NCBI GenBank assembly: GCA_903892045.1
Contig: CAITGX010000275.1
Coordinates: forward strand, 1-60,301
Reading direction: 5' to 3'
DNA from: an uncultured Planctomycetota bacterium
Lineage (GTDB): Bacteria > Planctomycetota > UBA1135 > GCA-002686595
DNA length: 60,301 nt
Below the pieces are notes generated by a model that was given only the letters and a program-made list of their open reading frames with translations, searched no databases and was not told where the DNA came from. The position numbers and the translations under genes are program-made. This document shows, in pieces, positions 3,530 through 54,964 of this stretch. The stretch's first letter is position 1. Every line of letters starts with the position of its first letter.

Positions 3530-3551
3530 TCTCCAGCGCTAGGATGGGGGC

Positions 3552-4679: not shown

Positions 4680-4696
4680 GCGCACCGGATCCGCGC

Positions 4697-5875: not shown

Positions 5876-5890
5876 CCAGCGCGCGGCCGC

Positions 5891-7072: not shown

Positions 7073-7150
7073 GGGGGCGAAGAGCGTACGCCAGGGACCG
7101 GCGGAGAGTGCAATTGAACCGCGGGCGGCAGTTGGAACAATGTCCGTGCC

Positions 7151-13753: not shown

Positions 13754-15376
13754 ATGGCCGAGCGCAAGCAGTCCTCCAGCAAGTCGTCGTACCTCCGCAT
13801 CGCGCTGATCCTCGCGCTGAACGCGGCCGCCGTGTTCGCGCTGTGGCGCATCTGGCCGCGCGGCTCGAGCAACGCGTCCGCGGGAAGCGTGCAGGCCGCG
13901 AGCGCGCCGCGCGTGGTGGAGGAGATCCCGAAGGGACCGCCGCCGCTCGCGCCCGAGGCGCGCAACAGGCTCGAGCGCGACCTGCGCGCGATCGTCGCCG
14001 AGTGGGTCGAGCGCGCGCGCAAGGAGAGCAAGAACAAGGTCCACCAGGGCAACGCCGCCGTCGCGCTGCACGTGCGCGAGGTCGGCTCCGGTGCGGTGGG
14101 AGAGATTGCGCTCGGCTCCGACCGGCTGATGCGCCCGGCGTCGAACCTGAAGCTGATCACGACCGCGGCCGCGCTCGTGCTGCTCGGTCCCGATGGCGCG
14201 TTTCGCACGCGCTTCGACACCAGCGGACCGGTGGTCGAGGGCGTGCTGCGCGGCAACCTCGTGGTGCGCGCCGGCGCGGATCCGCTCTACGACAGCGTCG
14301 CGAACGGCGACGTCGAGCACCTGCTCGCGCCCGCGCTCGACCAGCTCGTCGCGCAGGGCGTGCGCGTCATCGCGGGCGACATCGTGCTCGACGAAGGCAC
14401 GTACCAGACGCCCGCCGCGGCTCCGCAGTGGCCCGATGCCGGCCAGCACTGGGCCGAGTACTGCGCGCTCGCGGGCGGCTTCACCGCCAACCGCGGCTGC
14501 CTGACGGCGGTGGTGAGCCCGGGAGCGGTCGGCGGCCCGGCCCGCGTCAGCCTGTTCCCGCGCGAGCATGGCCTCGCTGTGAACCTCGGCGTGCGCACGG
14601 AAGCCAAGGGCAAGCTCGACGTGCAGTGCGGAGCGAAGCCCAGCGGGGTGCTCGTGCGCGGCTCGATCCCCGCGAAGAGCGAGACGTTCGTGGCCTCGTT
14701 CTCGCACCCCGATCCCGTCGAGCTCTTCGGAAACGCGCTCGGCGGTGCGCTCGCGCGCCGTGGCGTCGTCGTGCAAGGCCGACTGCGCCGCGAGCGCAAC
14801 GCGCCCGCTCAAGCGACCCTGGCGCTGCTCGAGACGCCGATCGAGCGTGTGCTCGGGCCGATCAACGCGGACTCGACCAATGCTGCCGCGGACCAGCTGT
14901 TCCTCGCCACCGCGCAGGCGATCACGGGGCAGGGTACGCGCGCCGCGGGCGCGCAGGCGACACAGCTCGCGCTGCAGCGGCTCGGCATCTCGACCGACGG
15001 CCTCGCGCAGGTCGACGGCTCGGGACTCTCGCGCGCCAACCAGGTGACCGCACGGCAGGTGGTCGCGCTGGTCGAGAAAGTGCTCACGCAGGACGGGCGC
15101 AGCGCGCGCATGTTCCTCGACTCGCTCGCGGTCGCGGGCGAGCGCGGCACGCTCGACGACCGGATGACGAAGGGCCCTGCGCGCGGCCGCGTGCGCGCGA
15201 AGACGGGCTTCATCGCCGGCACGAGTGCGCTCTCGGGAGTCGCGGAGACCGTCGAGGGACGGCGCTTCGCGTTCTCGATCCTCGTCAACTACCCCGACGT
15301 CGGCGGGCTCAATCCGAGCGTCTGGAAGCCGATGCAGGACGCGCTCTGCGAGCGGCTGGTCGAAACGCGGCCGTGA
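13754..15376 (+). CDS. dacB: D-alanyl-D-alanine carboxypeptidase/endopeptidase (PBP4, peptidase S13)
   Basis: N-terminal membrane/signal segment. SxxK (PASNLK). DGSGLS. KTG (AKTGFIAGTSALSG). Confidence 0.85.
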   Translation: MAERKQSSSKSSYLRIALILALNAAAVFALWRIWPRGSSNASAGSVQAASAPRVVEEIPKGPPPLAPEARNRLERDLRAIVAEWVERARKESKNKVHQGNAAVALHVREVGSGAVGEIALGSDRLMRPASNLKLITTAAALVLLGPDGAFRTRFDTSGPVVEGVLRGNLVVRAGADPLYDSVANGDVEHLLAPALDQLVAQGVRVIAGDIVLDEGTYQTPAAAPQWPDAGQHWAEYCALAGGFTANRGCLTAVVSPGAVGGPARVSLFPREHGLAVNLGVRTEAKGKLDVQCGAKPSGVLVRGSIPAKSETFVASFSHPDPVELFGNALGGALARRGVVVQGRLRRERNAPAQATLALLETPIERVLGPINADSTNAAADQLFLATAQAITGQGTRAAGAQATQLALQRLGISTDGLAQVDGSGLSRANQVTARQVVALVEKVLTQDGRSARMFLDSLAVAGERGTLDDRMTKGPARGRVRAKTGFIAGTSALSGVAETVEGRRFAFSILVNYPDVGGLNPSVWKPMQDALCERLVETRP

Positions 15377-16179
15377 GCGAGCGCACCGACGACCTCGAGC
15401 GCTGGAAGTCCGTGGCGGTCGAGGCCGCCCACGCGGCTGGCCGCGTGCTGATGGAGCACTTCGGGCACATCGCGCGCAGCGACGTCGGCTCGAAGTCCGC
15501 GGCGCGCGACCTCGTGACGAAGGCGGACGTGGCGAGCGAGCGCGCCGTGGTCGCGGTCCTGCGGCGCGAGTGCCCCGAGCACGCGATCGAGGCCGAGGAA
15601 GAGGTGCGGGACAAGCCGCGAGCGGAGGACGAGCTGCGCTGGTTCGTTGACCCGCTCGATGGCACCACCAACTTCGTGCACCAGCTGCCGACGTTCTCGG
15701 TGTCGATCGGCCTCTATCGCGGCGCGACGCCGCTCGTCGGAGTGGTCCACGCGCCGCGACTCGGCGAGACCTACGCGGCGCGCGCAGGCGGGGGCACGAG
15801 CGTCAACGGCGTGCCCGTGCGCGTGTCCGGCTGCGAGAGCCTGCGCGACGCGATCCTCGCCACCGGCTTCCCGTACCGGCGCGAGACGCTGCGCTGCGAC
15901 AACGTCGACAACTTCCGCCGCTTCATCCTCGAGGTGCGCGACATCCGGCGCATGGGCTCGGCGGCCCTCGACCTCGCCTGGGTCGCCGCGGGCCGGATGG
16001 ACGGATTCTGGGAGCTGCACCTCGCGCCCCACGACGTGGCGGCGGGGGCGCTGCTGGTGCGGGAATCCGGAGGCGTCGTCAGCGACGCGGACGGCGGCGA
16101 GCACTGGCTGCGGGGCGGGCACATCGTGGCCTGCGTTCCGGCCCTGCACGCCGAAATGCTCGGGAAAATCGGCCACTAG
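15373..16179 (+). CDS. suhB: Inositol monophosphatase family protein
   Basis: 3' part of ORF 12535..16179. The GTG at 15373 overlaps the dacB stop (GTGA). Motifs WFVDPLDGTTNF and GSAALDLAWVAAGRMDGFWE. Confidence 0.85.
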   Translation: MSERTDDLERWKSVAVEAAHAAGRVLMEHFGHIARSDVGSKSAARDLVTKADVASERAVVAVLRRECPEHAIEAEEEVRDKPRAEDELRWFVDPLDGTTNFVHQLPTFSVSIGLYRGATPLVGVVHAPRLGETYAARAGGGTSVNGVPVRVSGCESLRDAILATGFPYRRETLRCDNVDNFRRFILEVRDIRRMGSAALDLAWVAAGRMDGFWELHLAPHDVAAGALLVRESGGVVSDADGGEHWLRGGHIVACVPALHAEMLGKIGH

Positions 16180-16385
16180 CTGCGGCGAGAGCCCGCGTTC
16201 CGGCGGGGGACGATTCCCGCTCGCGAGACGGCCCCGAGGAAGACTCGGCCGGGGAGCGGTGGCCTTTCGGCGACTTGCGCGCGGCGCTACGATGCCCGCT
16301 TGCGGAGTTTCCTGCCCTAGCTCCGCGAAGCCCGCCGGGTTCGGTGCGCTTTGCGACTGCGGGAAGCCCCGCGCGCACCCTGCCC

Positions 16386-19300
16386 ATGCAGCGCCAAGAG
16401 GATGTCCGGCCGCAGGCCGCGGCGACGAGCGCGATCCGCGTCCGCGGAGCGCGTGTGCACAACCTGCACGGCGTCGACGTCGACATCCCGCGCAACGAGC
16501 TGGTGGCGATCACGGGCGTGTCGGGCTCGGGCAAGAGCTCGCTCGCCTTCGACACGCTGTTCCGCGAGGGACAGCGGCGCTTCCTCGAGACGCTGTCGGC
16601 GTACGCGCGCCAGTTCCTCGGGCGCATGGAGAAGCCCGACGTCGACTCGATCGAGGGCCTCGCGCCGGCGATCGCCGTCGATCAGGCGGCCGCGAGCTCG
16701 AGTCCGCGCTCGACCGTCGGCACGCTGACGGAGATCTTCGACCACCTGCGCGTGCTGTACGCGCGCGCCGGCCGGCCGCACTGCCCCAAGTGCAACGTGC
16801 CGCTGCAGTCGCTGACCCCGGAGTCGATCGTGCAGCAGGCGCTCGAGCTGTACGAGGGCAAGGCGGTCAACGTGCTCGCGCCGCTCATCCGCGACCGCAA
16901 GGGCCAGCACGAGGAGGTGCTCGAGGGACTCAAGCGCCGTGGACTGATCCGCGCGCGCGTCGATGGCACGATCGTGCGCATCGAGGAGGCGCCCAAGCTC
17001 GAGCGCTACGTGCGGCACACGATCGAGGCGGTCGTCGATCGCCTGCGCCCCGAGCGCGAGCAGCCCACGCGCCTGCGCGAGGCCGTCGAGAACGCGCTCG
17101 AGCTCTCCGGCGGTGACGTGATCTTCGCTCCGAGCGAGGAGGGACTCCCGGAGCGCGCGTGGTCCACGTCGCGCAACTGCCCTGGCTGCGGCGCCGACAC
17201 GCCGCCCCTCGAGCCGCGCCTCTTCTCGTTCAACTCTCCGCATGGCGCATGCCCGCAGTGCGAGGGACTCGGCCTGCGTCGGCAGGCGAGCGAGTCGCGC
17301 ATCGTGCGCGACGCCTCGCTCTCGATCCGCGAGGGAGCGCTCGCGGTCTCGAGCAAGTCCGGAACGTCGCTCAACTACCCGCCGGTCGACTTCGACTTCC
17401 TCGAGCAGGTCGCCGCGTCGTTCGACTTCGACCTCGACACGCCGTGGAAGGACCTGCCGCGCAGCGCGCGCCGCGTGATCCTGCACGGCGCGGGCGACGA
17501 GCGCTTCGAGGATGACTTCTCCTGGAACGGCGCGAAGTACCAGGGCTCGATCAAGTGGCAGCGGCGCTTCAAGGGCGTGATTCCGGCGCTGGAGAAGGCG
17601 GCTGCGGGCGGCAAGGCGACCGCGAGCGCGTTCTTCACGACGGCGGCCTGCGAGGCCTGCGCCGGAACGCGTCTCAAGCCGGCGGCGCTGGCCGTGCTCT
17701 TCGGCGGGGCATCGCTGCGCGAGCTGCTCAACCTCTCCATCCGCGAACTCGAGCCGCGACTCGAGAAGCTCGAGCTCTCCGCGCGCGAGGCGCGCATCGC
17801 TCGCGACCTGCTCGCGGAGGTCCGGAGGCGCACCGAGTTCCTGCGGCAGGTCGGCCTCGACTACCTGACGCTCGCGCGTGGTGCCGACACGCTCTCTGGC
17901 GGCGAGGCCCAGCGCATCCGGCTCGCGGCACAGCTCGGCAGCGCGCTGCAGGGCGTGCTGTACGTCCTCGACGAACCTTCGATCGGCCTCCACGCGCGCG
18001 ACCACGCCCAGCTGCTGCACGCGCTACAGCGCTTGCGCGACGGCGGCAACACGGTCGTGGTCGTCGAGCACGTCGAGGCCACGCTGCGCGCCGCGGACCA
18101 CATCATCGACGTCGGCCCGGGTGCGGGGCGCAACGGTGGCCACATCGTGGCGCGCGGCACGCCGCAGGACGTCGCGCGCGCGGACTCGCCGACGGGGCGC
18201 TTCCTGCGCGGCGAGCTCTCGATGCCCGCGCCCGCGCAGCGGCGCACCGGCAACGGCGAGTTCCTCGAGATCGAGGGAGCGCGCGCCTTCAACCTCAAGG
18301 GTGTCGACGCGCGCTTCCCGCTCGGCACGCTGTGCGTCGTCTCCGGCGTCAGCGGCTCGGGCAAGTCGACGCTGGTGAACCGCATCCTGCAGCCGGTGCT
18401 CGCGGCGCACCTCGAGCGCGAGGGCGACGAGCCCGGCGAGCACACGCGCGTGCGCGGCCTCGAGCGCGTGGGGGACATGGTGGCGATCGATGCCAGCCCG
18501 ATCGGTCGCACGCCGCGCAGCAACCCAGCCACGTATACGGGCGTGTTCGACCCGATCCGCGACCTGTTCGCGGCGCTGCCCGAGTCGCGCGTGCGCGGCT
18601 ACACGAAGTCGCGCTTCTCGTTCAACGTCGAGGGCGGTCGCTGCGAGGCCTGCGGCGGCGCGGGCTCCAAGCTCGTCGAGCTGCAGTTCCTCGCGCCCGT
18701 GACGGTGCCCTGCGACGAGTGCGGCGGCGAGCGCTTCCAGTCCGAGACGCTCGACGTGCGCTACAAGGAGAAGTCGATCGCCGACGTGCTCGCGCTCACG
18801 GTCGAGGAGGCGCTCGAGCTGTTCAAGGACCACCCGAAGATCGCGCGGCCGCTGCAGGCCATGGCGGACGTGGGCCTCTCGTACCTGACGCTCGGCCAGC
18901 CCTCGACGACCATCTCGGGCGGCGAGGCGCAGCGCATCAAGCTGGTCACGCAGCTGCAGAAGCGCGCCCGCGAGCACACCGTCTACCTGCTCGACGAGCC
19001 GACGACCGGGTTGCACCCGCAGGACATCGCGCGCCTCGTCGGAGCGCTGCAGCGCCTCGTCGACGCGGGTCACACCGCGATCGTGATCGAGCACAACCTC
19101 GACGTGATCCGAGCGGCGGACCACGTGCTCGATCTCGGGCCCGGCGGCGGTGACGCGGGTGGCGAGCTGGTCGCCTCGGGAACGCCGGAGCAGCTGATGC
19201 GCAACAAGCGCTCTGCGACGGGCGCCGCTCTGCGCGGCGAGCACGCGGTCGCTCGCAAGCAGCAGCTCGGCCGCGGCGAGCACGTGCCGAGCGACCGCAT

Positions 19301-22190
19301 CCGCGTCGTCGATGCAACCACGCACAACCTCGACCACGTCTCTGTCGACATGCCGCGCGACGCGCTGGTCGTGATCACGGGCCCCTCGGGCTCGGGCAAG
19401 AGCTCGCTCGCGCTCGACACGATCCACACGGAAGGCCGCCGACGCTTCGTCGAGTCGCTCTCGACCTACGCACGACAGTTCCTCGGGAACCGCGACAAGC
19501 CGCCCGTCGATCGCATCGAGGGACTCGGGCCGTCGGTGGCCGTCGAGGCGAGCACGTCGCGCGGCCATCCGCGCTCGACCGTCGCCACCACGACGGAGAT
19601 CCACGACCACCTGCGCGTCCTGTGGGCGCGCGCCGGGACTCCGCGCTGCCCGACGCACGGGCTCGAGCTCGCCAAGGTCGATCCGGCTCGCATCGCGCGC
19701 GACGTGCTGAAGCGTCACGCCGGCGGCAAGGGCTGGGTCGTCGCACCGGTGCGCGGTCCCGGCCTCGGAACGGATACGTTCGACAAGGAGCAGCTCGACA
19801 AGCTCGTCGACGCTTGGAAGGCCGCGGGCTTCGTGCGTCTGCTCGTCGACGGCTCGGAAGTCCGTCTCGACGGCAAGCTGCAAAAGCTCGGGGCCGAGGC
19901 GCGCGTCGACCTCGTGATCGACCGCCTCGGCTTCGCGCCGGACGCGCGCGCGCGCATCGCCGAGGCGGCCGAGCAGGCGGCCGCGCAAGCGCACGGCCGC
20001 GTGAGCATCGTCGTCGCCGGAGGCCCGCGACTCGAGTACTCGACGCAGGGCGCCTGCCCCGAGTGCGGCCACCGGCTCGAGCACCGCCTCGACCCGCGGC
20101 ACTTCTCGTTCAACACGCACGCGGGCGCCTGCCCCGAGTGCGACGGCCTCGGCTCTTCGAGCCGCTGCGATCCCGCGAAGCTCGTCCTGCACGAGGACCG
20201 CTCGCTGCTCGAGGACGCGCTGCATCCGAAGTTCGCGCGCTACCTCGTCAAGGGCAAGGGCTACTACGAGCACCTGTTCCTCACCGTCGCGCGCACGCAC
20301 AAGATCAAGGTCGAGCTCGCCTTCGGCAACCTGAGCAAGGCGCAGCAGGACCTGCTGCTGTTCGGCAAGGGCTCGAAGCCGCGCTACGAGGTGAAGATCG
20401 AGCGCGAGAGCATGAACGCGGAGATCTCCGAGCGCTTCACGGCCGACTGGCCGGGTCTGTGCGGACACATCGACGCCTGGCATCGCAAGACGGAAGACGC
20501 GGAGTGGGCCACGCTGCTCGAGCAGGTCATGACCACGGTCACGTGCCCGACCTGCGAAGGCGAGCGCCTGATGCCCGACGCGCGCCACGCCGTCGTCGCG
20601 GGCGTGCGCATGCCCGAAATGGCGCGCTGGTCCGTATCGCGCTCGCTCGAATGGCTGCGCAAGCTCGCGCTGCCGGCCTCGACGCGCGAGGGCGTGGAGC
20701 AGGTGGTCGGCGAGCTCGTCTCGCGCCTCTCGCTGCTCGAGCGCGTCGGTCTCGGCTACCTGACCCTCGACCGGCCGACGCACACGCTCTCGGGTGGCGA
20801 GGCGCGGCGCGTGCGGCTGTCCGCAAACCTCGGCTCGCAGCTCGTTGGCGTCTGCTACGTGCTCGACGAGCCCACCGTCGGCCTGCATCCCGCGGACGTC
20901 GAGAAGCTCACCGGCGCGCTGCTCGAGCTGCGCGCGGGAGGCAACAGCGTGCTCGTGGTCGAGCACGACGAGAGTCTGATGCGTCGCGCGGACTGGATCG
21001 TCGACATGGGCCCGGGCGCCGGTCGCCTCGGCGGCAAGGTCGTCGCCAGCGGCACGCCCGCGGAGATCGAGGCGCATGCGAGCTCGCTCACGGGCGCCGC
21101 CCTGCGTGGCGAGCTCGCCCCCGCGCGCAGCGCCGAGCGCGCGAGCGGACGCGAGAAGCGCGCGAAGATCCGGCTCGTCGGCGCGACCGGCAACAACCTG
21201 AAGAGCGTCGACTACGAAGCGCGCTTCGGCTCGATCAACGGCGTGTGCGGGCCCTCGGGTTCCGGCAAGAGCACGCTGGTGCTCGACACGCTCGTGCCCG
21301 CGCTGCGCGGCGAAGGGCCCGTGGGGCGCTGGCGCAAGCTCGAGGTCGGTATCGAGTCGCCGCGCGTCGTCGTCATCGACGCCTCGCCGATCGGGCGCAC
21401 TCCCGCGAGCACGCCCGCAACCTACACGGGGCTGCTCGAGCCGATCCGCGAGCTCTTCTCGCGCACGCCCGACGCGCGCATGAAGGGCTACGGACCGAGC
21501 CACTTCTCGTTCAACTCGCCCAAGGGGCGCTGCCCGGCCTGCGAGGGCAAGGGAGCGACGCTGGTCGAGATGCAGTTCCTCGCGGACCTGTGGCTCTCGT
21601 GCGACGAGTGCGGCGGACGGCGCTTCGCTCCGGAAGTGCTCGAGGTGCGCTATCGCGGCAAGAACGTCGCGGACGTGCTCGACCTCTCCGTCGACGAAGC
21701 GCTCGAGTTCCTCGACGCGCACCCGCGCGCCGTGTCGATCCTGCGCACGCTCTCCGACGTCGGCCTGGGCTACATGTCGCTCGGCCAGAGCTCTACGACG
21801 CTCTCCGGCGGCGAGGCCCAGCGAGTCAAGCTCGCCGGCGAGCTGTTCCCCGGCGAGTCCACGGGCCCCGCGGCGATCATCCTCGACGAGCCCTCGACCG
21901 GCCTGCACGCCTCCGACGTCGCGCGCCTCGCGCGCGTGCTCGGCCGACTCGCGGACGAAGGCCACGCCGTGATCCTGATCGAGCATCACACGGGACTGCT
22001 CGCGGCCTGCGACGAGCTCGTCGAGCTCGGTCCCGCGGGCGGCGAGGCCGGCGGACGCGTCATCGCGCGCGGCACGCCGGAGGAACTGTCCCGCGATCCG
22101 CGCTCGGTCACGGGGCCCTTCCTCGCCACCGACTCCGCTTCCCGCAACTCGCCCCCCGCGCGCCCCGGGCGCGTCGAGGTCCTGCGATGA
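16386..22190 (+). CDS. uvrA: Tandemly duplicated UvrA (two complete excinuclease ABC subunit A units in one 1934-aa polypeptide)
   Basis: ORF 16275..22190, with the ATG at 16386 just before IRVRGARVHNL. Unit 1 runs to about 19250 and unit 2 from about 19290. Four Walker A motifs (GVSGSGKSS, GVSGSGKST, GPSGSGKSS, GPSGSGKST). Four ABC signatures (LSGGEAQR x2, ISGGEAQR, LSGGEARR). Four Walker B motifs (LDEPS/T.GLH). UvrA zinc modules (CPKC..CPGC, CPQCEGLG, CEAC in unit 1; CPTH..CPEC, CPECDGLG, CPTCEG, CPACEGKG in unit 2). Confidence 0.9.
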   Translation: MQRQEDVRPQAAATSAIRVRGARVHNLHGVDVDIPRNELVAITGVSGSGKSSLAFDTLFREGQRRFLETLSAYARQFLGRMEKPDVDSIEGLAPAIAVDQAAASSSPRSTVGTLTEIFDHLRVLYARAGRPHCPKCNVPLQSLTPESIVQQALELYEGKAVNVLAPLIRDRKGQHEEVLEGLKRRGLIRARVDGTIVRIEEAPKLERYVRHTIEAVVDRLRPEREQPTRLREAVENALELSGGDVIFAPSEEGLPERAWSTSRNCPGCGADTPPLEPRLFSFNSPHGACPQCEGLGLRRQASESRIVRDASLSIREGALAVSSKSGTSLNYPPVDFDFLEQVAASFDFDLDTPWKDLPRSARRVILHGAGDERFEDDFSWNGAKYQGSIKWQRRFKGVIPALEKAAAGGKATASAFFTTAACEACAGTRLKPAALAVLFGGASLRELLNLSIRELEPRLEKLELSAREARIARDLLAEVRRRTEFLRQVGLDYLTLARGADTLSGGEAQRIRLAAQLGSALQGVLYVLDEPSIGLHARDHAQLLHALQRLRDGGNTVVVVEHVEATLRAADHIIDVGPGAGRNGGHIVARGTPQDVARADSPTGRFLRGELSMPAPAQRRTGNGEFLEIEGARAFNLKGVDARFPLGTLCVVSGVSGSGKSTLVNRILQPVLAAHLEREGDEPGEHTRVRGLERVGDMVAIDASPIGRTPRSNPATYTGVFDPIRDLFAALPESRVRGYTKSRFSFNVEGGRCEACGGAGSKLVELQFLAPVTVPCDECGGERFQSETLDVRYKEKSIADVLALTVEEALELFKDHPKIARPLQAMADVGLSYLTLGQPSTTISGGEAQRIKLVTQLQKRAREHTVYLLDEPTTGLHPQDIARLVGALQRLVDAGHTAIVIEHNLDVIRAADHVLDLGPGGGDAGGELVASGTPEQLMRNKRSATGAALRGEHAVARKQQLGRGEHVPSDRIRVVDATTHNLDHVSVDMPRDALVVITGPSGSGKSSLALDTIHTEGRRRFVESLSTYARQFLGNRDKPPVDRIEGLGPSVAVEASTSRGHPRSTVATTTEIHDHLRVLWARAGTPRCPTHGLELAKVDPARIARDVLKRHAGGKGWVVAPVRGPGLGTDTFDKEQLDKLVDAWKAAGFVRLLVDGSEVRLDGKLQKLGAEARVDLVIDRLGFAPDARARIAEAAEQAAAQAHGRVSIVVAGGPRLEYSTQGACPECGHRLEHRLDPRHFSFNTHAGACPECDGLGSSSRCDPAKLVLHEDRSLLEDALHPKFARYLVKGKGYYEHLFLTVARTHKIKVELAFGNLSKAQQDLLLFGKGSKPRYEVKIERESMNAEISERFTADWPGLCGHIDAWHRKTEDAEWATLLEQVMTTVTCPTCEGERLMPDARHAVVAGVRMPEMARWSVSRSLEWLRKLALPASTREGVEQVVGELVSRLSLLERVGLGYLTLDRPTHTLSGGEARRVRLSANLGSQLVGVCYVLDEPTVGLHPADVEKLTGALLELRAGGNSVLVVEHDESLMRRADWIVDMGPGAGRLGGKVVASGTPAEIEAHASSLTGAALRGELAPARSAERASGREKRAKIRLVGATGNNLKSVDYEARFGSINGVCGPSGSGKSTLVLDTLVPALRGEGPVGRWRKLEVGIESPRVVVIDASPIGRTPASTPATYTGLLEPIRELFSRTPDARMKGYGPSHFSFNSPKGRCPACEGKGATLVEMQFLADLWLSCDECGGRRFAPEVLEVRYRGKNVADVLDLSVDEALEFLDAHPRAVSILRTLSDVGLGYMSLGQSSTTLSGGEAQRVKLAGELFPGESTGPAAIILDEPSTGLHASDVARLARVLGRLADEGHAVILIEHHTGLLAACDELVELGPAGGEAGGRVIARGTPEELSRDPRSVTGPFLATDSASRNSPPARPGRVEVLR

Positions 22191-23962
22191 TCCGACCCGA
22201 CAATCCGCTGATCGTGCAGAGCGACCGCTCGCTCATGCTCCACACCGTGCGCGCCGTGGTCGACGCCAAGGGGCACCCCGTGCGCGACGCGCAGGGCCAG
22301 CCGCTGACGGAAGAGCACCCGCGCTTCGCGGAGGCGCGCGACGCGCTCGCCGGCTTCGCGGAGCTCGAGAAGAGCCCCGACTACCTGCACACCTACCGCA
22401 TCACGCCGGTGTCGGTGTGGAACGCGGCCGCGCTCGGCCTGACGGTCGAGAAGATCCAGCAGGTGCTCGACGAATACTCGTGCGTGCCCGTGCCGCGCCG
22501 CGTGCTCGAGGACGTCAAGGGCTGGATCACTCGCTACGGCCTGCTCAAGATCGAGCGCCGCCCGGGTCCGGATGGCAAGGACGCCTTCGAGCTCGCGAGT
22601 GCCTCGCGCGAGGCACTCGATGACGTGCTCGGCCACGAGGCCGTGCGCAAGCTCGTCAAGCTCGATGCGAGCAAGCGCGTGTGGGTCGATGCGCTCGATC
22701 GCGGCACGATCAAGCAAGCACTGATCAAGATCGGCTACCCCGTCGAGGACCGCGGCGGCTACGTCGAAGGCGACCGGCTCGAGTTCACGTTGCGGCCGCA
22801 CACGCGTGGCGGGAAGTCCTTCGCCCCGCGCAGCTACCAGCGCATGGCGGCCGAGGCGTTCCACGCCGGCGGCAGCGTGGTGGGCGGCAACGGCGTGATC
22901 GTGCTGCCCTGCGGAGCCGGCAAGACCGTCGTCGCGCTCACCGTGATGAGCCTCGTGCAGGCCAAGACGCTGATCCTCACCACGAACACCGTCGCGGTGC
23001 GCCAATGGCGCGAGGAGTTGCTCGACAAGACCACGCTGCGTCCTGAGGACGTCGGCGAGTACACGGGCGACAACAAGGTCGTGGCGCCGGTGACGATCAC
23101 GACCTACCAGATGCTCACCTGGCGTCGCGCGAAGACGGAGACCTTCGAGCACTTCGAGGTCTTCGGCAAGCAGAACTGGGGCCTCGTGGTGTACGACGAG
23201 GTGCACCTGCTGCCGGCGCCGGTGTTCCGCGCCACCGCGGAGCTGCAGGCTCGTCGGCGTCTCGGCCTCACGGCCACGCTGGTGCGCGAGGACGGCAAGG
23301 AGGACGAGGTCTTCTGCCTGATCGGTCCCAAGCGCTTCGACATGCCGTGGAAGGTGCTCGAAGGCCAGGGCTTCATCGCGACGGCGACGTGCACCGAGGT
23401 GCGCGTGCCGCTCGATCCGGGCGCGAAGCAAGCCTACGTCGCGGCGGGGGCGCGCGCGAAGTTCCGCGTCGCCAGCGAGAATCCCGCGAAGCTGCGCGCC
23501 GTGCAGCGCATCCTCGAGCGGCACGCCGGCGCGCACGTGCTCATCATCGGGCAGTACATCGAGCAGCTCGAGGAACTCGCGCGCGAGCTGAAGGCCCCGC
23601 TCATCATGGGCAAGACGCCCAACTCCGAGCGCGAGCGCCTCTACGCGCAGTTCAAGTCGGGCGAGCTGCGAGTGCTGATCGTTTCCAAGGTCGGCAACTT
23701 CGCCGTGGACTTGCCGGAGGCCAACGTCGCGATCCAGGTCAGCGGCACCTTCGGCTCGCGGCAAGAGGAGGCCCAGCGCCTCGGCCGCATCCTGCGCCCG
23801 AAGAGCGACGGGTCCGCCGCGGCCTTCTACTCGATCGTCACGCTCGGCTCGCGCGACCAAGAGTTCAGCGAGAAGCGCCAGCTGTTCCTCACCGAGCAGG
23901 GCTACTCCTACGAGATCATCGAGGCCGCGGCCCTCGAGCCGCGCACGGAGGCTGCGCGATGA
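22187..23962 (+). CDS. XPB/ERCC3/Ssl2-type SF2 DNA helicase/translocase
   Basis: 3' part of ORF 19622..23962. The ATG at 22187 overlaps the UvrA-UvrA stop (ATGA). Motif I LPCGAGKT. Motif II DEVH. XPB-specific RED motif in GLTATLVREDGKE. N-terminal domain typical of XPB (damage-recognition-like domain). Confidence 0.88.
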   Translation: MIRPDNPLIVQSDRSLMLHTVRAVVDAKGHPVRDAQGQPLTEEHPRFAEARDALAGFAELEKSPDYLHTYRITPVSVWNAAALGLTVEKIQQVLDEYSCVPVPRRVLEDVKGWITRYGLLKIERRPGPDGKDAFELASASREALDDVLGHEAVRKLVKLDASKRVWVDALDRGTIKQALIKIGYPVEDRGGYVEGDRLEFTLRPHTRGGKSFAPRSYQRMAAEAFHAGGSVVGGNGVIVLPCGAGKTVVALTVMSLVQAKTLILTTNTVAVRQWREELLDKTTLRPEDVGEYTGDNKVVAPVTITTYQMLTWRRAKTETFEHFEVFGKQNWGLVVYDEVHLLPAPVFRATAELQARRRLGLTATLVREDGKEDEVFCLIGPKRFDMPWKVLEGQGFIATATCTEVRVPLDPGAKQAYVAAGARAKFRVASENPAKLRAVQRILERHAGAHVLIIGQYIEQLEELARELKAPLIMGKTPNSERERLYAQFKSGELRVLIVSKVGNFAVDLPEANVAIQVSGTFGSRQEEAQRLGRILRPKSDGSAAAFYSIVTLGSRDQEFSEKRQLFLTEQGYSYEIIEAAALEPRTEAAR

Positions 23963-26061
23963 GCGAGTCGCCGACCTCGCGGCCGGCGGACGACGGGGCG
24001 GCGCGCGCGCCGCTCGCGCGACCGAGGCTCGCGGACCTGCTCGGCACGCTCGGCGAGCGCGAGCTCGGCGACCTGTACCTGTTCTGGGGCGGACCCGACT
24101 CTCCGCCGCCACCGGCGGACCTCGCGGAGCGTCGCAAGGTGCTCGCGGCCTGGATGAGCGCGGGCGAGGTCGCAGAAGCGCGCTTGCAGGGGCTCGGACG
24201 TCGCCCGCAACAGGTGCTCTCCATGTTCCTCGACGCGCAGGGGTACATGCACAGCACCGCCGAGCTCGGCGACCACCGGCTGCTGGCGCACCTCTCGCGC
24301 TATGAACTCGACTCGTGCGTCCAGGCGCTGGCGCGCTGCGGCGCGCTGCTGGAGGTGCCCGACCGGCGCTCGAAGGCCGCGGGCGCCAAGGCTTGGGTCG
24401 TGCCGATGGAGCTCGGCGACGGTCTCCTGCGGCAGCAACGCGCGAAGCGCCGCGGGGTGTTCGACCTGCTCACGCTGCGCGGCTTCCTCGACTGCCAGTA
24501 CGACGACCCGGCTCGCGGCCGCCGCATGACGCCGACGCGCCTGCGCGAGATGTACAAGATGTACTCCAACGAGGCCGCCTCGCTCGCGCGCGTCGAGCGC
24601 CTGCCGGACGACGTGCGACCGCTGGTCGAGAAGTGCATCCTGCAGTTCGGCGGGCTGCTGCCGCGCGCGCTGTTCGAGCGCCTCGAGGATGGCTCGGGAC
24701 CGTGGAATGGCGGGCGCTGGAAGCAGGTGCTCGAGGAGAGCCTCGTCGGAACGGTCGAGAAGCTCGAGCTCTCCCGCTACGGCATCGCGCACGCCGACGA
24801 CACGCTGGTCGTGTTCAACGAGATCGCGCTGGCGTGGCTGCGCCGCGTGGCGGTACCGGGCGACCCGGACGCGCCGCACTCCGAGCACGGACTCGGCGTC
24901 GATCTCGTCAGCAACATCTCGCGCTTCATGGGCTTCCTGATCGAGCACAACGTGCGCTTCACGGTGCGCGGCGAGATCTTCAAGACGACCGAGAAGCGCA
25001 TCCTGCAGGACCTGATCCCCAACCCCGGCCGCGAGCTCTCGCGCGCCGCCGTGCTCGACTTCATCTTCGAGTTCACGCGCGGCATGGGCCTGATCGAGTC
25101 GACCGGAGAGCGCACCTTCGCGATCGCCGCCGCAGGCCGCGACTGGGAGCAGCGCCCGCTCGAGCAGAAGCTGCACACGCTCGTCGAGTACGCCACGGAG
25201 GAGCGCGACGTCGCCGGCGACTGGTACCACCAAGTGCGCCTGCGCCGCATCTTCATGCGCCTGATGAAGCGCATGGAGCCGGGCACGTGGTACGACCTGA
25301 TGTACCTGCCGTTCCTCTCGCGCAACACGTACCTCGCCGGCCTCGACCAGCTCGCGGTCGACGAGTACTTCGCGACGCGCTCGCAAGGCGCGAGCTGCGC
25401 GCCGATGGAGGACCCGCAGCGACTGGCGTGGAACCTCGCGCGCTGGGTGCGCCAGCGCCTGTACCTCTTCGGCGTCGTCGAGCTCGGCTACGACCGCGCC
25501 GGTCGTCCGGTCGCCATGAAGCTCACGCGCTCCGGCGCACGCCTGCTCGGCGTGGTCGAGCAGGGGCCGGGAGCCGCTCCGCTCCTCGGCAGCCTGATCG
25601 TGACGCCCGACTTCGAGGTCGTGCTGTTCCCGACCGGCGACGACGCGGCGCTCGTGCACGAGCTCGACCGCTTCTGCGAGCGCGAGCGGCAGGGCGAGAC
25701 GATGCACTTCCGCATCCACGAGCGCTCGGTGCAGCGCGCTCTGTCGGAAGGCATGCTGCTTTCGCGCATGCTCTCGGTGCTGCGCCTGCAGTCTCGCACG
25801 CCCGTGCCGCAGAACGTGCTGTTCTCGATCCGCGACTGGGCGGGACGCGCGGGCGTGCTGCACCTCGACGCTTCGCTCGTCCTGCGCGGCGACGACCCGG
25901 ACACGCTCAAGCGCTTCCAGAGCGACGCCGGGGTGAAGAACTTCGTGCGCGAGGTGCTCGACGAGCGTCGCCTGCAGCTGAAGAGCCGCTACGCGCCCAA
26001 GCGCTTGCACTCGCTGCTGCGGGAGTTCGGCTACAAGGTCGAGCTCGACGGCGTGCAGTGA
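23959..26061 (+). CDS. XPB-associated protein, p52/Tfb2-like (C-terminal domain paralogous to the XPB N-terminal domain)
   Basis: 3' part of ORF 23347..26061. The ATG at 23959 overlaps the XPB stop (ATGA). C-terminal about 110 aa (LIVTPDFEVVLFP...MHFRIHERSVQRALSEGMLLSRMLSVLRLQSRTPVPQNVLFSIRDWAGRAG) aligns by eye with the XPB N-terminus (LIVQSDRSLML...HTYRITPVSVWNAAALGLTVEKIQQVLDEYSCVPVPRRVLEDVKGWITRYG). It also resembles the eukaryotic Tfb2/p52 pattern (ETNF.VYAY...ITRESV..AL..GI). Confidence 0.6.
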   Translation: MSESPTSRPADDGAARAPLARPRLADLLGTLGERELGDLYLFWGGPDSPPPPADLAERRKVLAAWMSAGEVAEARLQGLGRRPQQVLSMFLDAQGYMHSTAELGDHRLLAHLSRYELDSCVQALARCGALLEVPDRRSKAAGAKAWVVPMELGDGLLRQQRAKRRGVFDLLTLRGFLDCQYDDPARGRRMTPTRLREMYKMYSNEAASLARVERLPDDVRPLVEKCILQFGGLLPRALFERLEDGSGPWNGGRWKQVLEESLVGTVEKLELSRYGIAHADDTLVVFNEIALAWLRRVAVPGDPDAPHSEHGLGVDLVSNISRFMGFLIEHNVRFTVRGEIFKTTEKRILQDLIPNPGRELSRAAVLDFIFEFTRGMGLIESTGERTFAIAAAGRDWEQRPLEQKLHTLVEYATEERDVAGDWYHQVRLRRIFMRLMKRMEPGTWYDLMYLPFLSRNTYLAGLDQLAVDEYFATRSQGASCAPMEDPQRLAWNLARWVRQRLYLFGVVELGYDRAGRPVAMKLTRSGARLLGVVEQGPGAAPLLGSLIVTPDFEVVLFPTGDDAALVHELDRFCERERQGETMHFRIHERSVQRALSEGMLLSRMLSVLRLQSRTPVPQNVLFSIRDWAGRAGVLHLDASLVLRGDDPDTLKRFQSDAGVKNFVREVLDERRLQLKSRYAPKRLHSLLREFGYKVELDGVQ

Positions 26062-26702
26062 TGCGGCTGCCGCCGCCGATCCTCGCGCTCTCGCCGGGCA
26101 CGCTCGCGTCCGCGGATGCGCAGGCGTTCGTCGCACGCGTCGCGCGCTGTCGAGAGGCCGGCCTGCGCGGCGTGATGCTGCGCGAGCCGCGCCTGTCGGA
26201 TCGCGAGTATCTCGCCCTGGCAAAGGCCCTGCGCGATGCACTGCCGCGCGAGGACCGCGGCTGGCTCGCGCTGCACGACCGGCCCCACCTCGCCGCCGCG
26301 TGCGAGGCCGATGCCGTGCACTTGGGTGGGCGCTCGCTTCGTCCGGCGCTCCTTCGCGCCTGGATCGAGCCGCACATCGCGCTCGGACTCTCCACGCACG
26401 CCGCGGACGACGCCGAGAGTTGGTCGGGCGCCGACTATCTCGTGCACGGTCCGGTGTGTGCGACGCACAAGGGTGACGCCAGCATCGAAGGCATCGGCTT
26501 CGAGGCCCTCGCTCGCGGCGTCGCGCGAGCGAGCGTTCCGGTGTGGGGGCTCGGCGGGCTCGGTCCTGAACACGCCGCAGCGCTCGTGCAGGCAGGCGCG
26601 AGCGGACTCGCCGTGCTGAGCGGGCTGCTCGCGCGGCCCGATGCGGAGTACCGCGCCGCCGAGTACGCGCAGGCATGGCTGGAAGCGGCGCCCAAGGCGT
26701 AG
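26061..26702 (+). CDS. thiE: Thiamine-phosphate synthase
   Basis: 3' part of ORF 24315..26702. The ATG at 26061 shares one nt with the upstream stop (TGATG). TIM-barrel ThiE-like pattern (VHLGG, GLSTH, DYL..GPV, VPVWGLGG). Confidence 0.8.
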   Translation: MRLPPPILALSPGTLASADAQAFVARVARCREAGLRGVMLREPRLSDREYLALAKALRDALPREDRGWLALHDRPHLAAACEADAVHLGGRSLRPALLRAWIEPHIALGLSTHAADDAESWSGADYLVHGPVCATHKGDASIEGIGFEALARGVARASVPVWGLGGLGPEHAAALVQAGASGLAVLSGLLARPDAEYRAAEYAQAWLEAAPKA

Positions 26703-26711
26703 GATCGCGCC

Positions 26712-27632
26712 ATGGCCTGGAACGAGGACTCCTTGCACCGCTGGCTGGCGCGCCGTCCGCGCTCGCGCGTGGCGGTCGACTTTGGCAACGATGCTTCGGT
26801 GCTCGCGAGCGCGCTGAGGCGACCCGTCGCGTGCGTGGATGCGGTCGTGGACGGCGTGCACTTCGAACACGGCACGCCGGCGCGGCTCGCGGGCGCGAAG
26901 GCCTGCGCACGCGCGCTGAGCGACCTCGCCGCGACCGGCGCAGAGCCACGCGCCGTGCTGCTCGCGCTGCGTGCACCGCGCTCGGAGCGCGAAGTGCGGC
27001 TGAGGGCGCTGATCGCCGCCGTGGATGAGACGGCGCGCGCTCACGGCGCCGCGCTCGTCGGCGGGGACACGACCTGCGCCGAGGGTCCGCTCGCGCTCAC
27101 GGTCACCGCACTCGGCGAGTTCGTCGCGCGCGGCAAGCCGCCCTCGCGTCGGCGTGCACGCGCCGGACAAGTCGTGGTGGCGACGGGCGCCTTCGGAGGC
27201 AGCCTGCTCGGGCGTCACCTGCGCATCGCGCCGCGCTTCGACGCGGCGCGCTGGCTGCTCGGCCTCGGCGCGACCGCGATGATGGATGTCTCCGACGGGC
27301 TCGCGCTCGACCTTTCGCGCATCGCGCGCGCCTCGTGCGTCGCGATCGACATCGGCGTCGTTCCGGTCCACCCCGACGCGCGCCGGCGCGCTCGCCAGAG
27401 CGGGCGTGCGGCCCTGCAGCACGCGCTCCACGACGGCGAGGATCACGAGCTCGTCGCGACCCTGCCCGCGAGCTCGGTCCTGCGCGCCCTGCGCGAGGCG
27501 CCCCGACGCTGCCCGGGTTTCACGATCCTCGGCAACGTGCGCCGCGGCAGCGGCCTGCGCGTCCCGCGCGACGAACGCAGCGAGGAGCTCGTGCCCTTTG
27601 CCGGCGAAGGCGGCTGGATCCACGGCACGTGA
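26712..27632 (+). CDS. thiL: Thiamine-monophosphate kinase
   Basis: AIR-synthase-related fold motifs: DAVVDGVHF, ALSDLAATGA, LVGGDTT, DVSDGLALDL. Confidence 0.85.
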   Translation: MAWNEDSLHRWLARRPRSRVAVDFGNDASVLASALRRPVACVDAVVDGVHFEHGTPARLAGAKACARALSDLAATGAEPRAVLLALRAPRSEREVRLRALIAAVDETARAHGAALVGGDTTCAEGPLALTVTALGEFVARGKPPSRRRARAGQVVVATGAFGGSLLGRHLRIAPRFDAARWLLGLGATAMMDVSDGLALDLSRIARASCVAIDIGVVPVHPDARRRARQSGRAALQHALHDGEDHELVATLPASSVLRALREAPRRCPGFTILGNVRRGSGLRVPRDERSEELVPFAGEGGWIHGT

Positions 27633-28120
27633 GCGAGACTCGGGAGTTCCAGAGCGCCTCGGCGCGCGAGACCGAAGCGCTGGGAGAGGCGCTCGGGCGG
27701 CTGCTCGGGCCCGGAGATGTCGTGGCCTTGGACGGCGAGCTCGGCGGCGGGAAGACCTGCTTCGTGCGCGGGCTCGCCCGGGGGCTGGGCGTGACGGTGC
27801 CGGTCTCGAGCCCGACCTTCCAGCTGATGCACACCTACGCGGGGCGCCTGCCGCTGTACCACCTCGACGCGTGGATGCGGGAGCGGGGCGAGGGCTTCCT
27901 CGCCGAGGGGGGCGCGGAGTGGCTGCGCGCAGAGGGCGTGGCGGCGGTCGAGTGGGCCGCCCACGTGCGGGACTGGCTCCCGACGCCGCGCTTCGAGGTC
28001 GAGCTGCGCCATGGGGGAGCGGATGGGGGAGAGGAACGTCGGACGGTGGTGATGCGCTGGACGGGCCCCACGGGCCGCTTGGCGGGCTTGGGCCCCACGG
28101 CGAGCCCGGAAAAGGCCTGA
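27629..28120 (+). CDS. tsaE: tRNA t6A37 biosynthesis ATPase TsaE
   Basis: 3' part of ORF 27335..28120. The GTG at 27629 overlaps the thiL stop (GTGA). P-loop GELGGGKT followed by SPTF and YH.D.YR-like (LYHLDAWM) motifs. Confidence 0.8.
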   Translation: MSETREFQSASARETEALGEALGRLLGPGDVVALDGELGGGKTCFVRGLARGLGVTVPVSSPTFQLMHTYAGRLPLYHLDAWMRERGEGFLAEGGAEWLRAEGVAAVEWAAHVRDWLPTPRFEVELRHGGADGGEERRTVVMRWTGPTGRLAGLGPTASPEKA

Positions 28121-28152
28121 ACCATGGCCCGGGCCCTGCGTTGGGGGAGTGC

Positions 28153-28737
28153 TTGAAAGGCTCCTGGGACGACGAGCGTGACCCGCTCGCGGCCCTCCGC
28201 GGAGGAAACCGGGGGCCGTTCGAGGAGTTCGTCCGCAGCGAAGCGGGCACGCTCCTGCGCTTCTTCCAGCGGCATGGCGCCTCGCTGGCGGAGGCGGAGG
28301 ACCTGGCCCAGGAAGTGTTCCTCAAGTTGTACCGTTCCGCCCCGACCTACAGCGCGCAGTCGCGCTTCTCGAGCTACGTGCTGCGCGTCGCGCGCAACGC
28401 GTGGATCGACCGGCGTCGGCGCCGGGCCGTGCGGCCCGAGGGGCCGTCGCTCGACGAGGCCGCAGCGGGGAGCGCGAGCCTGCTCGAAATCCTGCCCGCC
28501 ACGGGCCCGGAGGTCGGGCGCGGGGCCGAGGTGCGCGAGGAGCGCGAGCGCGTGCAAGCCGCGCTGGCGCACCTGCCGGAGTCCCATGCGGTGGTGGTCG
28601 AGCTCGCGCTGGTGCAGGGCCGTCCCTACGCGGAGATCTCCGAGCTGCTCGGCATCCCGGTGGGCACGGTGAAGTCGCGCGTATTCCACGCCCTGCGCAA
28701 GCTGCGCGAGCAGCTGGGAGAGGGGCCCCGCTCATGA
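28153..28737 (+). CDS. ECF-type RNA polymerase sigma factor
   Basis: 3' part of ORF 27286..28737. Region 2 (DLAQEVFLKLYR, YVLRVARNAWIDRRR) and region 4 HTH (YAEISELLGIPVGTVKSRVFHALRKLR). No in-frame ATG. TTG at 28153 (or 28141) is the best start candidate, so the 5' end is uncertain. Confidence 0.8.
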   Translation: MKGSWDDERDPLAALRGGNRGPFEEFVRSEAGTLLRFFQRHGASLAEAEDLAQEVFLKLYRSAPTYSAQSRFSSYVLRVARNAWIDRRRRRAVRPEGPSLDEAAAGSASLLEILPATGPEVGRGAEVREERERVQAALAHLPESHAVVVELALVQGRPYAEISELLGIPVGTVKSRVFHALRKLREQLGEGPRS

Positions 28738-29822
28738 GCGCGCAGCCTCACATGGACCATCGGAACTTCGACCATCAGCACTTCGATGAGGAGACGCTGC
28801 TGGAGGCGGCGCTGGATCCGAGCGCGACCGCGCTGCGGAGCGAGATCGAGCGCTGCGCCGCGTGCGCGGCTGCACTGCACAAGCTCGGCGGCTTCGCGAG
28901 CGATCTGCGCTCGCTGCTGCTCGAGGCGCCGGCGGCGGAGTCCAAGGCCGCGCGACGCATCGGGGAGGCCGTGCTGGCGCGCACCACGCGCGAGGACCTC
29001 GGTCGCGGTGGCGATCTCAGGCTGGTGCTGCGCTTTGCGGCCGAGCGCGTGCGTTCCTCGCGCGCGCTGCGCTTCGCGGCCGCCCTGCTCGTGGCGCACC
29101 TGCTCGCCCTGCCGGTGCTGGCGTGGATCGTGCTGCGCACTCCGCGGCGCACGGGCGAGTTCCAGACGCGCATCGAGACGCCCGTCGAGCCCTTCTTCGA
29201 AGGCGAGCGCGAGCGCGAGCCGGAGGTCGAGCCCAGCGTGGCGCTGCCCGAGGGCGAGCCCCGCGCGCTCGAGGTCGGTCCGGGCTCGGACGCAGCCGAC
29301 TGGCTCGCCGGTGCACGCCGCAGCGAGCTCGGCACCCTCGCGGCAACGGCGCCGACGCCGTGGAGCGAGTCCGCGCCCCAAGAGCCTCTGGCCCAGCTGC
29401 TGTGGCTGCGCGCCGCTCTCCTGCACGGCCGCGCGCTGCCCGAGTGGGTCCTCGCGCGCGGGCCCGAGGGCGCCCCGAGCCGCATGGCGATCTGGACCGA
29501 GGTGCTGCTCGACCAGTGGGCCAGCTCCGGTGCCCGCCCAGCCCACCTCGACGCGGCGCTCGAGCGACTCGCCGCCCTGCCGGACTTCCAGCGTTCGCGG
29601 CTGGTGACCTGCGCCCTGGCGCGAGCCACCGCGGCGGGAGCCCTCGAGGCCGCGGAGCTGGCGCGCTTCGTGCGCAGCAGCTCGGATGCACGGGAGATCG
29701 CCCGTCGAGCCGCCCGGGAGTCGCTCGCGGCGCTCCAGCGTGAAGCCCTCGGGGACCACCGCGATCCGGCGCTCGCGGAGCGCGAGGCGGCCCTCGACGC
29801 CTGGGGCGCGCCCCGGCGCTAG
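28734..29822 (+). CDS. Putative anti-sigma factor (single-pass membrane protein)
   Basis: The ATG at 28734 overlaps the sigma-factor stop (ATGA). N-terminal cytoplasmic segment with a CAAC motif. One hydrophobic helix (LRFAAALLVAHLLALPVLAWIVL). Function is assigned from position immediately after the ECF sigma gene. Confidence 0.6.
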   Translation: MSAQPHMDHRNFDHQHFDEETLLEAALDPSATALRSEIERCAACAAALHKLGGFASDLRSLLLEAPAAESKAARRIGEAVLARTTREDLGRGGDLRLVLRFAAERVRSSRALRFAAALLVAHLLALPVLAWIVLRTPRRTGEFQTRIETPVEPFFEGEREREPEVEPSVALPEGEPRALEVGPGSDAADWLAGARRSELGTLAATAPTPWSESAPQEPLAQLLWLRAALLHGRALPEWVLARGPEGAPSRMAIWTEVLLDQWASSGARPAHLDAALERLAALPDFQRSRLVTCALARATAAGALEAAELARFVRSSSDAREIARRAARESLAALQREALGDHRDPALAEREAALDAWGAPRR

Positions 29823-29936
29823 GGATCCCCGCAGGGGCTGAAACCCCGCCGGGCACCCGCTGTAGGAGGCCTTTTGGCGCGGCCCCGCGGGCCCGCCGTA
29901 GTCCCCGCGCACCGGACCCGTTACCCTCCTTCGCCC

Positions 29937-39152: not shown

Positions 39153-39283
39153 CTGGGGCGGGTTGGGGCGGCGCCCCTTCTGGCCCTCGCGCTCGCCCGA
39201 AAGGCGCGTCGATTGCCTGCGATTGCGGCGCGCCGGTAGTCTAGGACGCCGATCGGGGTGGTGGAACAGCGCCCCGCACCCCG

Positions 39284-40867: not shown

Positions 40868-41032
40868 GCGCCCGCTTCGCAAACCCAATCCTTGCAGGAT
40901 CCGCTGTTCTCCCGCCGGAAGGGCCCGAGGACGACGATCTGGCCGCTGGAACATCGGCCTTCTCGAAGCCAAGCTAGGGCTCGCGGCCGGTCCGGCTGCA
41001 ACCTCGCCCCCCGTGCGGGCTACCTTCCGAAC

Positions 41033-42310: not shown

Positions 42311-42350
42311 CTCCTCGGCGCCCACGGAGCGGCGCGGGAAGGCAAGGCCT

Positions 42351-54875: not shown

Positions 54876-54917
54876 GGTGCGCGGATTGTAGGCGCGCGCG
54901 CGCGCGGACGCGCGGGA

Positions 54918-54946
54918 TTGACGGCTTCCGAGCGTGCGTTTAGCCT
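54918..54946 (+). promoter_or_regulatory. Sigma-70-like promoter candidate for the riboswitch transcript
   Basis: TTGACG (54918-54923), 17-nt spacer, TAGCCT (54941-54946). Placed about 20-30 nt upstream of the riboswitch P1 stem. Confidence 0.4.
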
Positions 54947-54964
54947 CACACGCTGAAAATTCGT

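Follow-up and report, generated by a model that had tools for sequence, protein, structure and literature searches.

Within a 60,301-nucleotide (nt) stretch of DNA from an uncultured Planctomycetota bacterium (contig CAITGX010000275.1, positions 1 to 60,301 of the forward strand, referred to here at its full length as the window) lies a cluster of three consecutive genes that encode a tandem UvrA (ORF1), an XPB-type helicase (ORF2), and a protein predicted to resemble the p52/Tfb2 subunit of TFIIH (ORF3). Since 1997, to our knowledge, bacterial XPB has remained an orphan enzyme, active in vitro but with no known partner or pathway. The three genes are joined by two overlaps of 4 nt, in each of which the sequence ATGA provides the stop codon of one gene and the start codon of the next, and their translations contain no internal stop codons. 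An independent gene caller applied to the identical public metagenome scaffold (256,842 bp) returned the same products of 1934, 591, and 700 amino acids (aa). The features of the cluster are as follows.

16386..22190, forward strand: ORF1, tandem class-I UvrA, 1934 aa (NF001503, Pfam, and 2r6f alignments)
~aa 1-960 of ORF1, forward strand: UvrA unit 1 (NF001503, 2r6f)
16815..17129, forward strand: UvrB-binding domain (PF17760) of unit 1, aa 144-248 (best Pfam stretch)
~aa 961-1934 of ORF1, forward strand: UvrA unit 2 (NF001503, 2r6f)
19680..20012, forward strand: UvrB-binding domain of unit 2, ~aa 1099-1209 (mapped by aligning the ORF1 halves)
22187..22190, forward strand: ATGA, overlap of UvrA stop and XPB start (read in the sequence)
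22187..23962, forward strand: ORF2, XPB/ERCC3-type superfamily 2 (SF2) helicase, 591 aa (NF045503, Pfam, motifs)
22313..22654, forward strand: XPB N-terminal domain (PF13625), aa 43-156, paralogous to the ORF3 C-terminus (Pfam)
23959..23962, forward strand: ATGA, overlap of XPB stop and ORF3 start (read in the sequence)
23959..26061, forward strand: ORF3, predicted p52/Tfb2-like XPB partner, 700 aa (AlphaFold2 model with Foldseek, family profile)
24016..25563, forward strand: winged-helix-like domain array of ORF3, ~aa 20-535 (predicted secondary structure)
25594..26058, forward strand: "clutch"-like domain of ORF3, aa 546-700 (PF13625, hhalign, family profile)

The product of the first gene is a single chain made up of two class-I UvrA units, each of them complete. 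It matches the UvrA equivalog model NF001503 in two full-length stretches with a score of 2214.8 bits (cut-off 1147), contains two UvrB-binding domains (UvrA_inter, PF17760) and two insertion domains (UvrA_DNA-bind, PF17755), and carries four complete sets of Walker A, signature, and Walker B motifs. The UvrA of Geobacillus (2r6f) can be aligned end to end with each half, scoring 1014 bits with unit 1 and 775 bits with unit 2, and the units are separated by a poorly conserved linker of ~20 residues. Neither of the two PF17760 stretches was marked as weak in the scan of the identical public contig. The units are 44% identical to each other overall; the insertion domains (17%) and the UvrB-binding domains (30%) are the least alike, as opposed to 47-66% in the ATPase parts. 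All of the best 120 homologues are between 1914 and 2043 aa in length; across these orthologues the two units are conserved to a similar degree, with the UvrB-binding domain showing a mean identity to the window protein of 0.59 in unit 1 and 0.49 in unit 2. The asymmetric divergence of the units is compatible with sub-functionalization of the two "protomers". In unit 2, CPTHG replaces CxxC in the first Zn-module motif. Tandem UvrA architecture as such is not new, given the existence of NF001885 (PRK00635), an NCBIfam UvrA equivalog of 1809 aa and of the chlamydial type. ORF1 shares the tandem arrangement and aligns with NF001885 across the unit junction, but its score of 1232.3 bits lies far below the cut-off of 3054, so that it is not a member of this equivalog, and it further differs in being translationally coupled to XPB.

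The second gene encodes a bona fide XPB, which scores 805.6 bits against the model NF045503 ("DNA repair helicase XPB"; cut-off 610), matches PF16203, PF04851, and PF00271 in addition to the PF13625 domain listed above, and displays the motifs GAGKT, DEVH, and RED, the last within TATLVREDGKE.

Homologues of the third gene product are named in databases only as "helicase-associated domain-containing protein" or "hypothetical". Its sole Pfam match is to PF13625 (aa 546-662, E 3.5e-17), the same domain that is found at aa 43-156 of XPB, and the two regions can be related directly, both by BLASTP (30% identity over 99 aa, E 1e-9) and by hhalign, which pairs the ORF3 C-terminus with aa 48-192 of XPB (probability 96%, E 3.4e-9). 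The homology of the ORF3 clutch domain is solid. An AlphaFold2 model built with 77 homologues (mean confidence, pLDDT, 79.8) predicts a series of winged-helix-like domains with the PF13625 domain at its C-terminal end. When this model was compared with the PDB using Foldseek, the top 17 matches were all TFIIH p52/Tfb2 chains, with E-values from 4.9e-11 to 3e-6 (including 8ebs_D at 4.9e-11, 6nmi_D at 2.2e-8, and 6trs, "p52 in complex with p8", at 9e-7), a probability of 1.00, and ~14% identity over alignments of 365-540 columns (520-540 for full-length chains). XPB chains rank next, aligned over ~165 columns that correspond to the XPB N-terminal domain. TM-scores are low (0.13-0.31), as is expected for flexible multi-domain chains. 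In a control in which aa 1-540 were folded alone (pLDDT 71.9), the two best PDB matches were again p52, at E 7.6e-4 and 9.1e-4.

A sequence-level signal for p52 is obtained only with a diverse profile. When 1.84 billion representatives were searched with aa 1-540, only 173 clusters at 50% identity were retrieved, and an alignment of 63 of these (A3, mean column identity 27%) yields a profile that matches the human XPB N-terminal domain (1.3e-5), human p52 (0.003), and fungal Tfb2 (0.006-0.014), with no unrelated protein scoring higher; the p52 match falls in the clutch region, at about residues 346-373. The profile of close relatives (A2) reaches the XPB N-terminal domain only (E 0.03), so that the diversity of A3 is required for the p52 signal to appear. 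Among the members of A3, 62 of 63 match PF13625 and 12 match Pfam Tfb2, weakly (best E 1.8e-5). Several observations count against the p52 assignment. The window ORF3 itself has no match to Pfam Tfb2 (PF03849, gathering score 34.5 bits), even at E <= 10; no match was found to Tfb2_C, the p8/Tfb5-binding C-terminal domain; and ORF3 ends, at aa 700, inside the XPB-homologous region. In the control with aa 1-540, moreover, Pol III C82 ranks just behind p52 by virtue of its winged-helix array (E 2.5e-3), so that p52 is the best available match for the N-terminal array of ORF3 rather than a decisive one. Collinearity of this array, which has no Pfam match, with that of p52 is plausible. Taken together, the Foldseek ranking, the A3 profile, and the Tfb2 matches of relatives identify ORF3 as a p52/Tfb2-like protein, an assignment that combines a predicted fold with weak but specific sequence-level support. 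An archaeal Bax1-like partner was also considered and rejected, with no Pfam nuclease match and no Bax1 chain among the best 50 Foldseek matches listed. An initial annotation of this DNA, produced by a model from the sequence alone, had described the coordinates and both overlaps, the two UvrA units, the XPB hallmarks, the paralogy between the ORF3 end and the XPB N-terminal domain, and a likeness of ORF3 to p52/Tfb2; each of these descriptions agrees with the results above, the last by way of the Foldseek comparison that the annotation had suggested.

The distribution of the cluster was surveyed by scanning species-representative genomes with an XPB alignment, which gave at least 584 confirmed matches, and the survey is restricted to the 80 best of these loci. 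These loci were sorted using tblastn and a locally built ORF3 hidden Markov model, which may miss fast-evolving partners. UvrA is encoded directly upstream of XPB in 34 of the 80 loci, and the partner gene is also present in every one of these that could be assessed (33/33). In the converse sampling, from the UvrA side, all three double UvrAs that were picked for long contigs from the best 120 are followed by XPB and the partner. The UvrA-bearing loci are labelled Planctomycetota, with the exception of three records, namely one "uncultured bacterium" and two contigs from a metagenome-assembled genome (MAG) labelled "Candidatus Paceibacteria". The last two (L021 and L028, JBLIMI01) carry a Planctomycetota-type UvrA2-XPB(-partner) cluster at ~70% identity and are likely the product of binning contamination of that MAG. 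Homologues of the window proteins are named as Planctomycetes or Planctomycetota MAG proteins, and the cultured relative is Engelhardtia mirabilis Pla133 (L027). The co-localization foreseen in the initial annotation is therefore borne out inside the Planctomycetota.

Within this lineage the trio is kept down to identities of 54-60% for XPB, ~50% for UvrA, and 28-33% for the partner, several of the distant loci being labelled Phycisphaerales. In 32 of the 34 trio loci the sequence between UvrA and XPB offers a start codon in position for the 4-nt overlap, and most loci that have the pair offer one between XPB and the partner as well. Wherever the upstream gene is complete on its contig, it encodes a tandem UvrA, mostly of ~1930-2030 aa. 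Shorter, domain-depleted versions occur in L045 (4614-10007, 1797 aa), which has two UvrB-binding domains and one insertion domain, and in L051 (5349-9983, 1544 aa), which retains a single UvrB-binding domain and lacks the insertion domain altogether, the overlap with XPB being kept in both; L029 lies in an assembly with evident frameshifts. The partner encoded at L051 is N-terminally shortened, at 550 aa. L030 is the only UvrA-adjacent locus with a displaced partner, at a distance of ~4 kb; in this Planctomycetota MAG, two FG-GAP-repeat genes lie between XPB and the partner (2755-6658).

The XPB-partner pair extends to several phyla. The partner is found without UvrA in 12 of the 80 loci, under labels that include Caldithrix, Sumerlaeia, Latescibacterota, Anaerolineae, Chloroflexia, a delta proteobacterium, Gemmataceae, other Planctomycetota, and a Bacillota MAG. 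An Anaerolineae locus (L053) encodes two tandem partner paralogues (2923-5049 and 5060-7366), the second of which matches Pfam Tfb2 at E 7e-4 and 19 bits, under the cut-off. The partner of the delta proteobacterium-labelled locus L064 (11691-13508) bears a WYL domain C-terminal to its clutch-like domain. Neither UvrA nor the partner was found within 10 kb of XPB in 19 of the 80 loci, among them Poribacteria, Leptospira, and several Chloroflexota labels. An alternative conserved partner in Leptospira and Leptonema loci was considered and rejected: the immediate downstream neighbours of XPB that were checked encode unrelated products, namely an aminotransferase and a DUF4015 protein.

The closest known counterpart of the second and third genes is the XPB-p52(-p8) assembly of TFIIH (human GTF2H4/p52 and yeast Tfb2; 6NMI, 8EBS, and 6TRS), in which a PF13625-bearing XPB is combined with a winged-helix/clutch partner, as is predicted for the window pair. 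Within TFIIH, the XPB N-terminal domain has the same fold as the p52 clutch, and beta-sheet pairing between the two recruits XPB; the clutch, together with the dimer of p8 and the p52 C-terminal domain, cradles the RecA2 domain of XPB (PMC6422496). Stimulation of the XPB ATPase by p52 is attributed to Coin et al. (2007) as that work is cited in PMC3353954. The bacterial cluster differs in several respects: it has no p8/Tfb5, ORF3 ending with the clutch-like region and without the p8-binding C-terminal domain; the cluster encodes no homologues of p34, p44, p62, or XPD; at 700 aa, ORF3 exceeds the ~460 aa of p52; and the genes form an operon whose expression is, in this lineage, fused to that of UvrA. 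The XPB of Mycobacterium tuberculosis (Rv0861c) belongs to the same family as ORF2 and has a eukaryote-like N-terminal domain, 3'-5' helicase activity, and DNA-dependent ATPase activity, its cellular role being described as unknown; the same study stated in 2012 that homologues of p52 and p44 do not exist in bacteria (PMC3353954). To this the window adds a p52-like partner gene beside XPB. Rv0862c, which adjoins Rv0861c, may belong to the partner family of ORF3. In archaea, XPB is encoded beside, and works with, a dedicated partner, Bax1 (PMC7672443). The arrangement in the window is similar in that XPB is adjoined by a dedicated partner, but differs in that ORF3 has neither a nuclease domain nor a Bax1-like match. 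Bax1 is a nuclease and binds another surface of XPB. As for the UvrA component, each unit of ORF1 is a complete class-I UvrA, as in the canonical UvrA2-UvrB2 damage sensor. No description of a bacterial p52-like XPB partner, or of a UvrA-XPB operon (including in Planctomycetota), was found in a literature search whose coverage lay largely outside the subscription journals. The XPB-p52 principle is known from eukaryotes, and its bacterial operonic form and expression fusion to a tandem UvrA appear to be undescribed. The present results suggest that bacteria have a TFIIH-like XPB-p52 pair, previously stated as not found.

These observations can be accommodated in a composite reading, which we hold tentatively and at slightly less than an even chance, whereby a Planctomycetota lineage has welded two modules into one co-translated unit, with XPB and its partner serving as an accessory or alternative opener beside UvrB. 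The first module would be the tandem class-I UvrA, in effect a covalent UvrA dimer with four intact ATPase sites, which most likely still senses helix-distorting lesions and can load UvrB. The second would be the bacterial counterpart of the TFIIH XPB-p52 sub-module, composed of the XPB translocase and its winged-helix/clutch-like, p52-like partner (p52L). By analogy with TFIIH, the XPB N-terminal domain and the ORF3 clutch-like domain may pair as a pseudo-symmetric heterodimer that anchors XPB and stimulates its ATPase, while the winged-helix array may bind DNA or another factor. The gene identities, the domain content, the paralogy, the predicted p52-like fold, and the phyletic pattern are results of the analysis; the complex of XPB with its partner, and any hand-off from UvrA to XPB, are inferred. 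The conservation of the gene order UvrA2-XPB-partner and of the start/stop overlaps suggests that XPB-p52L acts in damage processing, most plausibly as an accessory or alternative opener at sites marked by UvrA. It would do so alongside UvrB and not as a replacement, because the UvrB-binding domains are kept in both UvrA units. The initial annotation had proposed an opener "instead of, or in addition to" UvrB; the composite reading keeps the second option, replacement being disfavored by the same domains.

The reading has to be weighed against the genomic setting, since the three genes are not the only ones at this locus to be tightly arranged. The trio is followed by a co-directional, tightly packed run of thiE, thiL, tsaE, and an extracytoplasmic function (ECF) sigma factor gene, the first of which abuts ORF3.

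26059..26702, forward strand: overlap of ORF3 stop and thiE start, and the thiE gene (TGATG at 26059-26063)

In this arrangement the thiE start shares 1 nt with the ORF3 stop, an overlap that the initial annotation does not list, and elsewhere in the same genome overlaps of 4 nt link PBP4 with suhB, thiL with tsaE, and the sigma factor gene with the gene that follows it (L086, 13959-36061). The order thiE-thiL-tsaE-sigma is preserved downstream of many trio loci in the lineage, and in the relatives L041 and L047 the order is suhB-XPB-partner with no UvrA in between. A scan of positions 15300-30000 gave no sigma-70-like promoter, and the comparison of 23 loci for a conserved palindromic SOS-box-like operator upstream of uvrA2 gave GC-rich noise only. 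All of these points tell against the composite reading. Terminator-like sites in 15300-30000 are fewer than the shuffled expectation. Because unrelated neighbours also overlap, a start/stop overlap alone is, in this genome, a weak argument for a shared machine, and because the unrelated thi and tsaE genes are equally syntenic, conserved adjacency can here reflect slow genome rearrangement. The initial annotation had argued from the tight coupling to a single machine, a step that does not survive the finding that overlaps of the same kind join ORF3 to thiE and other unrelated genes to each other, amid a conserved thiE-thiL-tsaE-sigma synteny. The link of XPB and its partner to UvrA is also weakened by the autonomous pair in other phyla and by the position of suhB directly upstream of XPB in L041 and L047.

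If these considerations were followed to their end, the tandem UvrA would be the housekeeping uvrA of the lineage, and XPB-p52L would be unrelated to it, engaged for example in remodelling stalled transcription or replication complexes, with the two brought together merely by inherited synteny in a slowly rearranging core region. This account, which we regard as somewhat unlikely, is favored by the nature of the window, which is core chromosome (rpsA, glyA, purC, aroA, PBP4, suhB, the trio, thiE, thiL, tsaE, and the ECF sigma factor gene), by the overlaps and synteny of the unrelated neighbours, by the very canonical character of UvrA unit 1 (seen in its score with 2r6f), by L041 and L047, and by the XPB of other phyla that have no UvrA neighbour. 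It does not sit easily with the fact that the trio outlives its flanking synteny: in L090 the upstream context differs and the trio is intact, and in L042, L065, L066, and L054 the trio is present without thiE adjoining the partner. Nor would it predict the conservation of the UvrA/XPB start/stop overlap in nearly all trio loci, and both modules are related to DNA damage by family. At the other extreme, as in the strong version of the initial annotation, the pre-dimerized UvrA2 could hand lesion DNA directly to XPB-p52L as one physical machine, in which XPB-p52L would open the DNA either instead of UvrB or in a second branch of its own. Order and overlap conserved across deep divergence speak for such a machine, as do the constant company of the partner wherever UvrA adjoins XPB, the concentration of divergence between the UvrA units in the partner- and DNA-contacting domains, and the loss of those domains in the distant L045 and L051 with retention of the overlap. 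We nevertheless consider it unlikely, given that UvrB-binding domains are recognizable in both units of the window protein, that XPB and its partner occur without an adjacent UvrA in many phyla, that the argument from overlap and synteny is equally true of thiE, and that the cluster encodes no nuclease. An anti-phage or mobile-element defence system composed of an ABC ATPase and an SF2 helicase was also entertained, as PADLOC gives a weak match of the XPB C-terminus to PbeA and matches of the UvrA halves to the ABC-ATPase models mad3 and mad8. These matches reflect generic similarity of ATPase and helicase cores, ORF3 has no PADLOC match, and the components do not match any one system specifically; furthermore, the locus is part of a conserved core synteny, no integrase gene lies near it, the window holds no mobile-element genes, and G+C content is uniform across the window at ~72%. 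The defence explanation was rejected as highly improbable.

The most far-reaching reading, in which bacteria possess a minimal TFIIH-like opener consisting of XPB clasped by a genuine p52 homologue, and in which this opener is recruited by a covalently dimerized UvrA in a Planctomycetota lineage to form a hybrid branch of excision repair, with a lesion sensor of bacterial type feeding a translocase of eukaryotic type, strikes us as doubtful. Its components would nonetheless be of interest separately. The conserved adjoining p52-like partner offers a concrete candidate complex for bacterial XPB, and the conserved coupling to uvrA, in a lineage that includes the cultured Engelhardtia mirabilis Pla133, provides a testable pathway hypothesis. 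If the pairing is real, the clutch pair formed by the TFIIH XPB N-terminal domain and p52 would predate eukaryotes as an ancient prokaryotic two-gene module. It may, in that case, be of bacterial rather than archaeal origin, because the archaeal XPB examined, that of A. fulgidus, appears to be without the N-terminal domain of the eukaryotic and bacterial type (PMC3353954). The tandem UvrA, for its part, constitutes a natural single-chain dimer with asymmetrically diverged halves and should be useful for dissecting the division of labour between protomers.

Beyond the genes already mentioned, the window encodes an outer-membrane efflux protein, CCA-adding enzyme, UbiA, RseP, Dxr, sdhA/C, and ddl, and no uvrB, uvrC, mfd, or second uvrA was found in its 60 kb. 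Long ORFs with high third-position GC and no Pfam match at E <= 1e-5 occupy 40868-42310, 42282-43937, 53241-55118 (reverse strand), and 55024-56658. A further ORF at 39245-40867 (forward strand) combines Zn_ribbon_Nudix, NUDIX, AIRS, and AIRS_C domains, its product joining a Nudix hydrolase to an AIR-synthase-related (ThiL/SelD/HypE-like) module.

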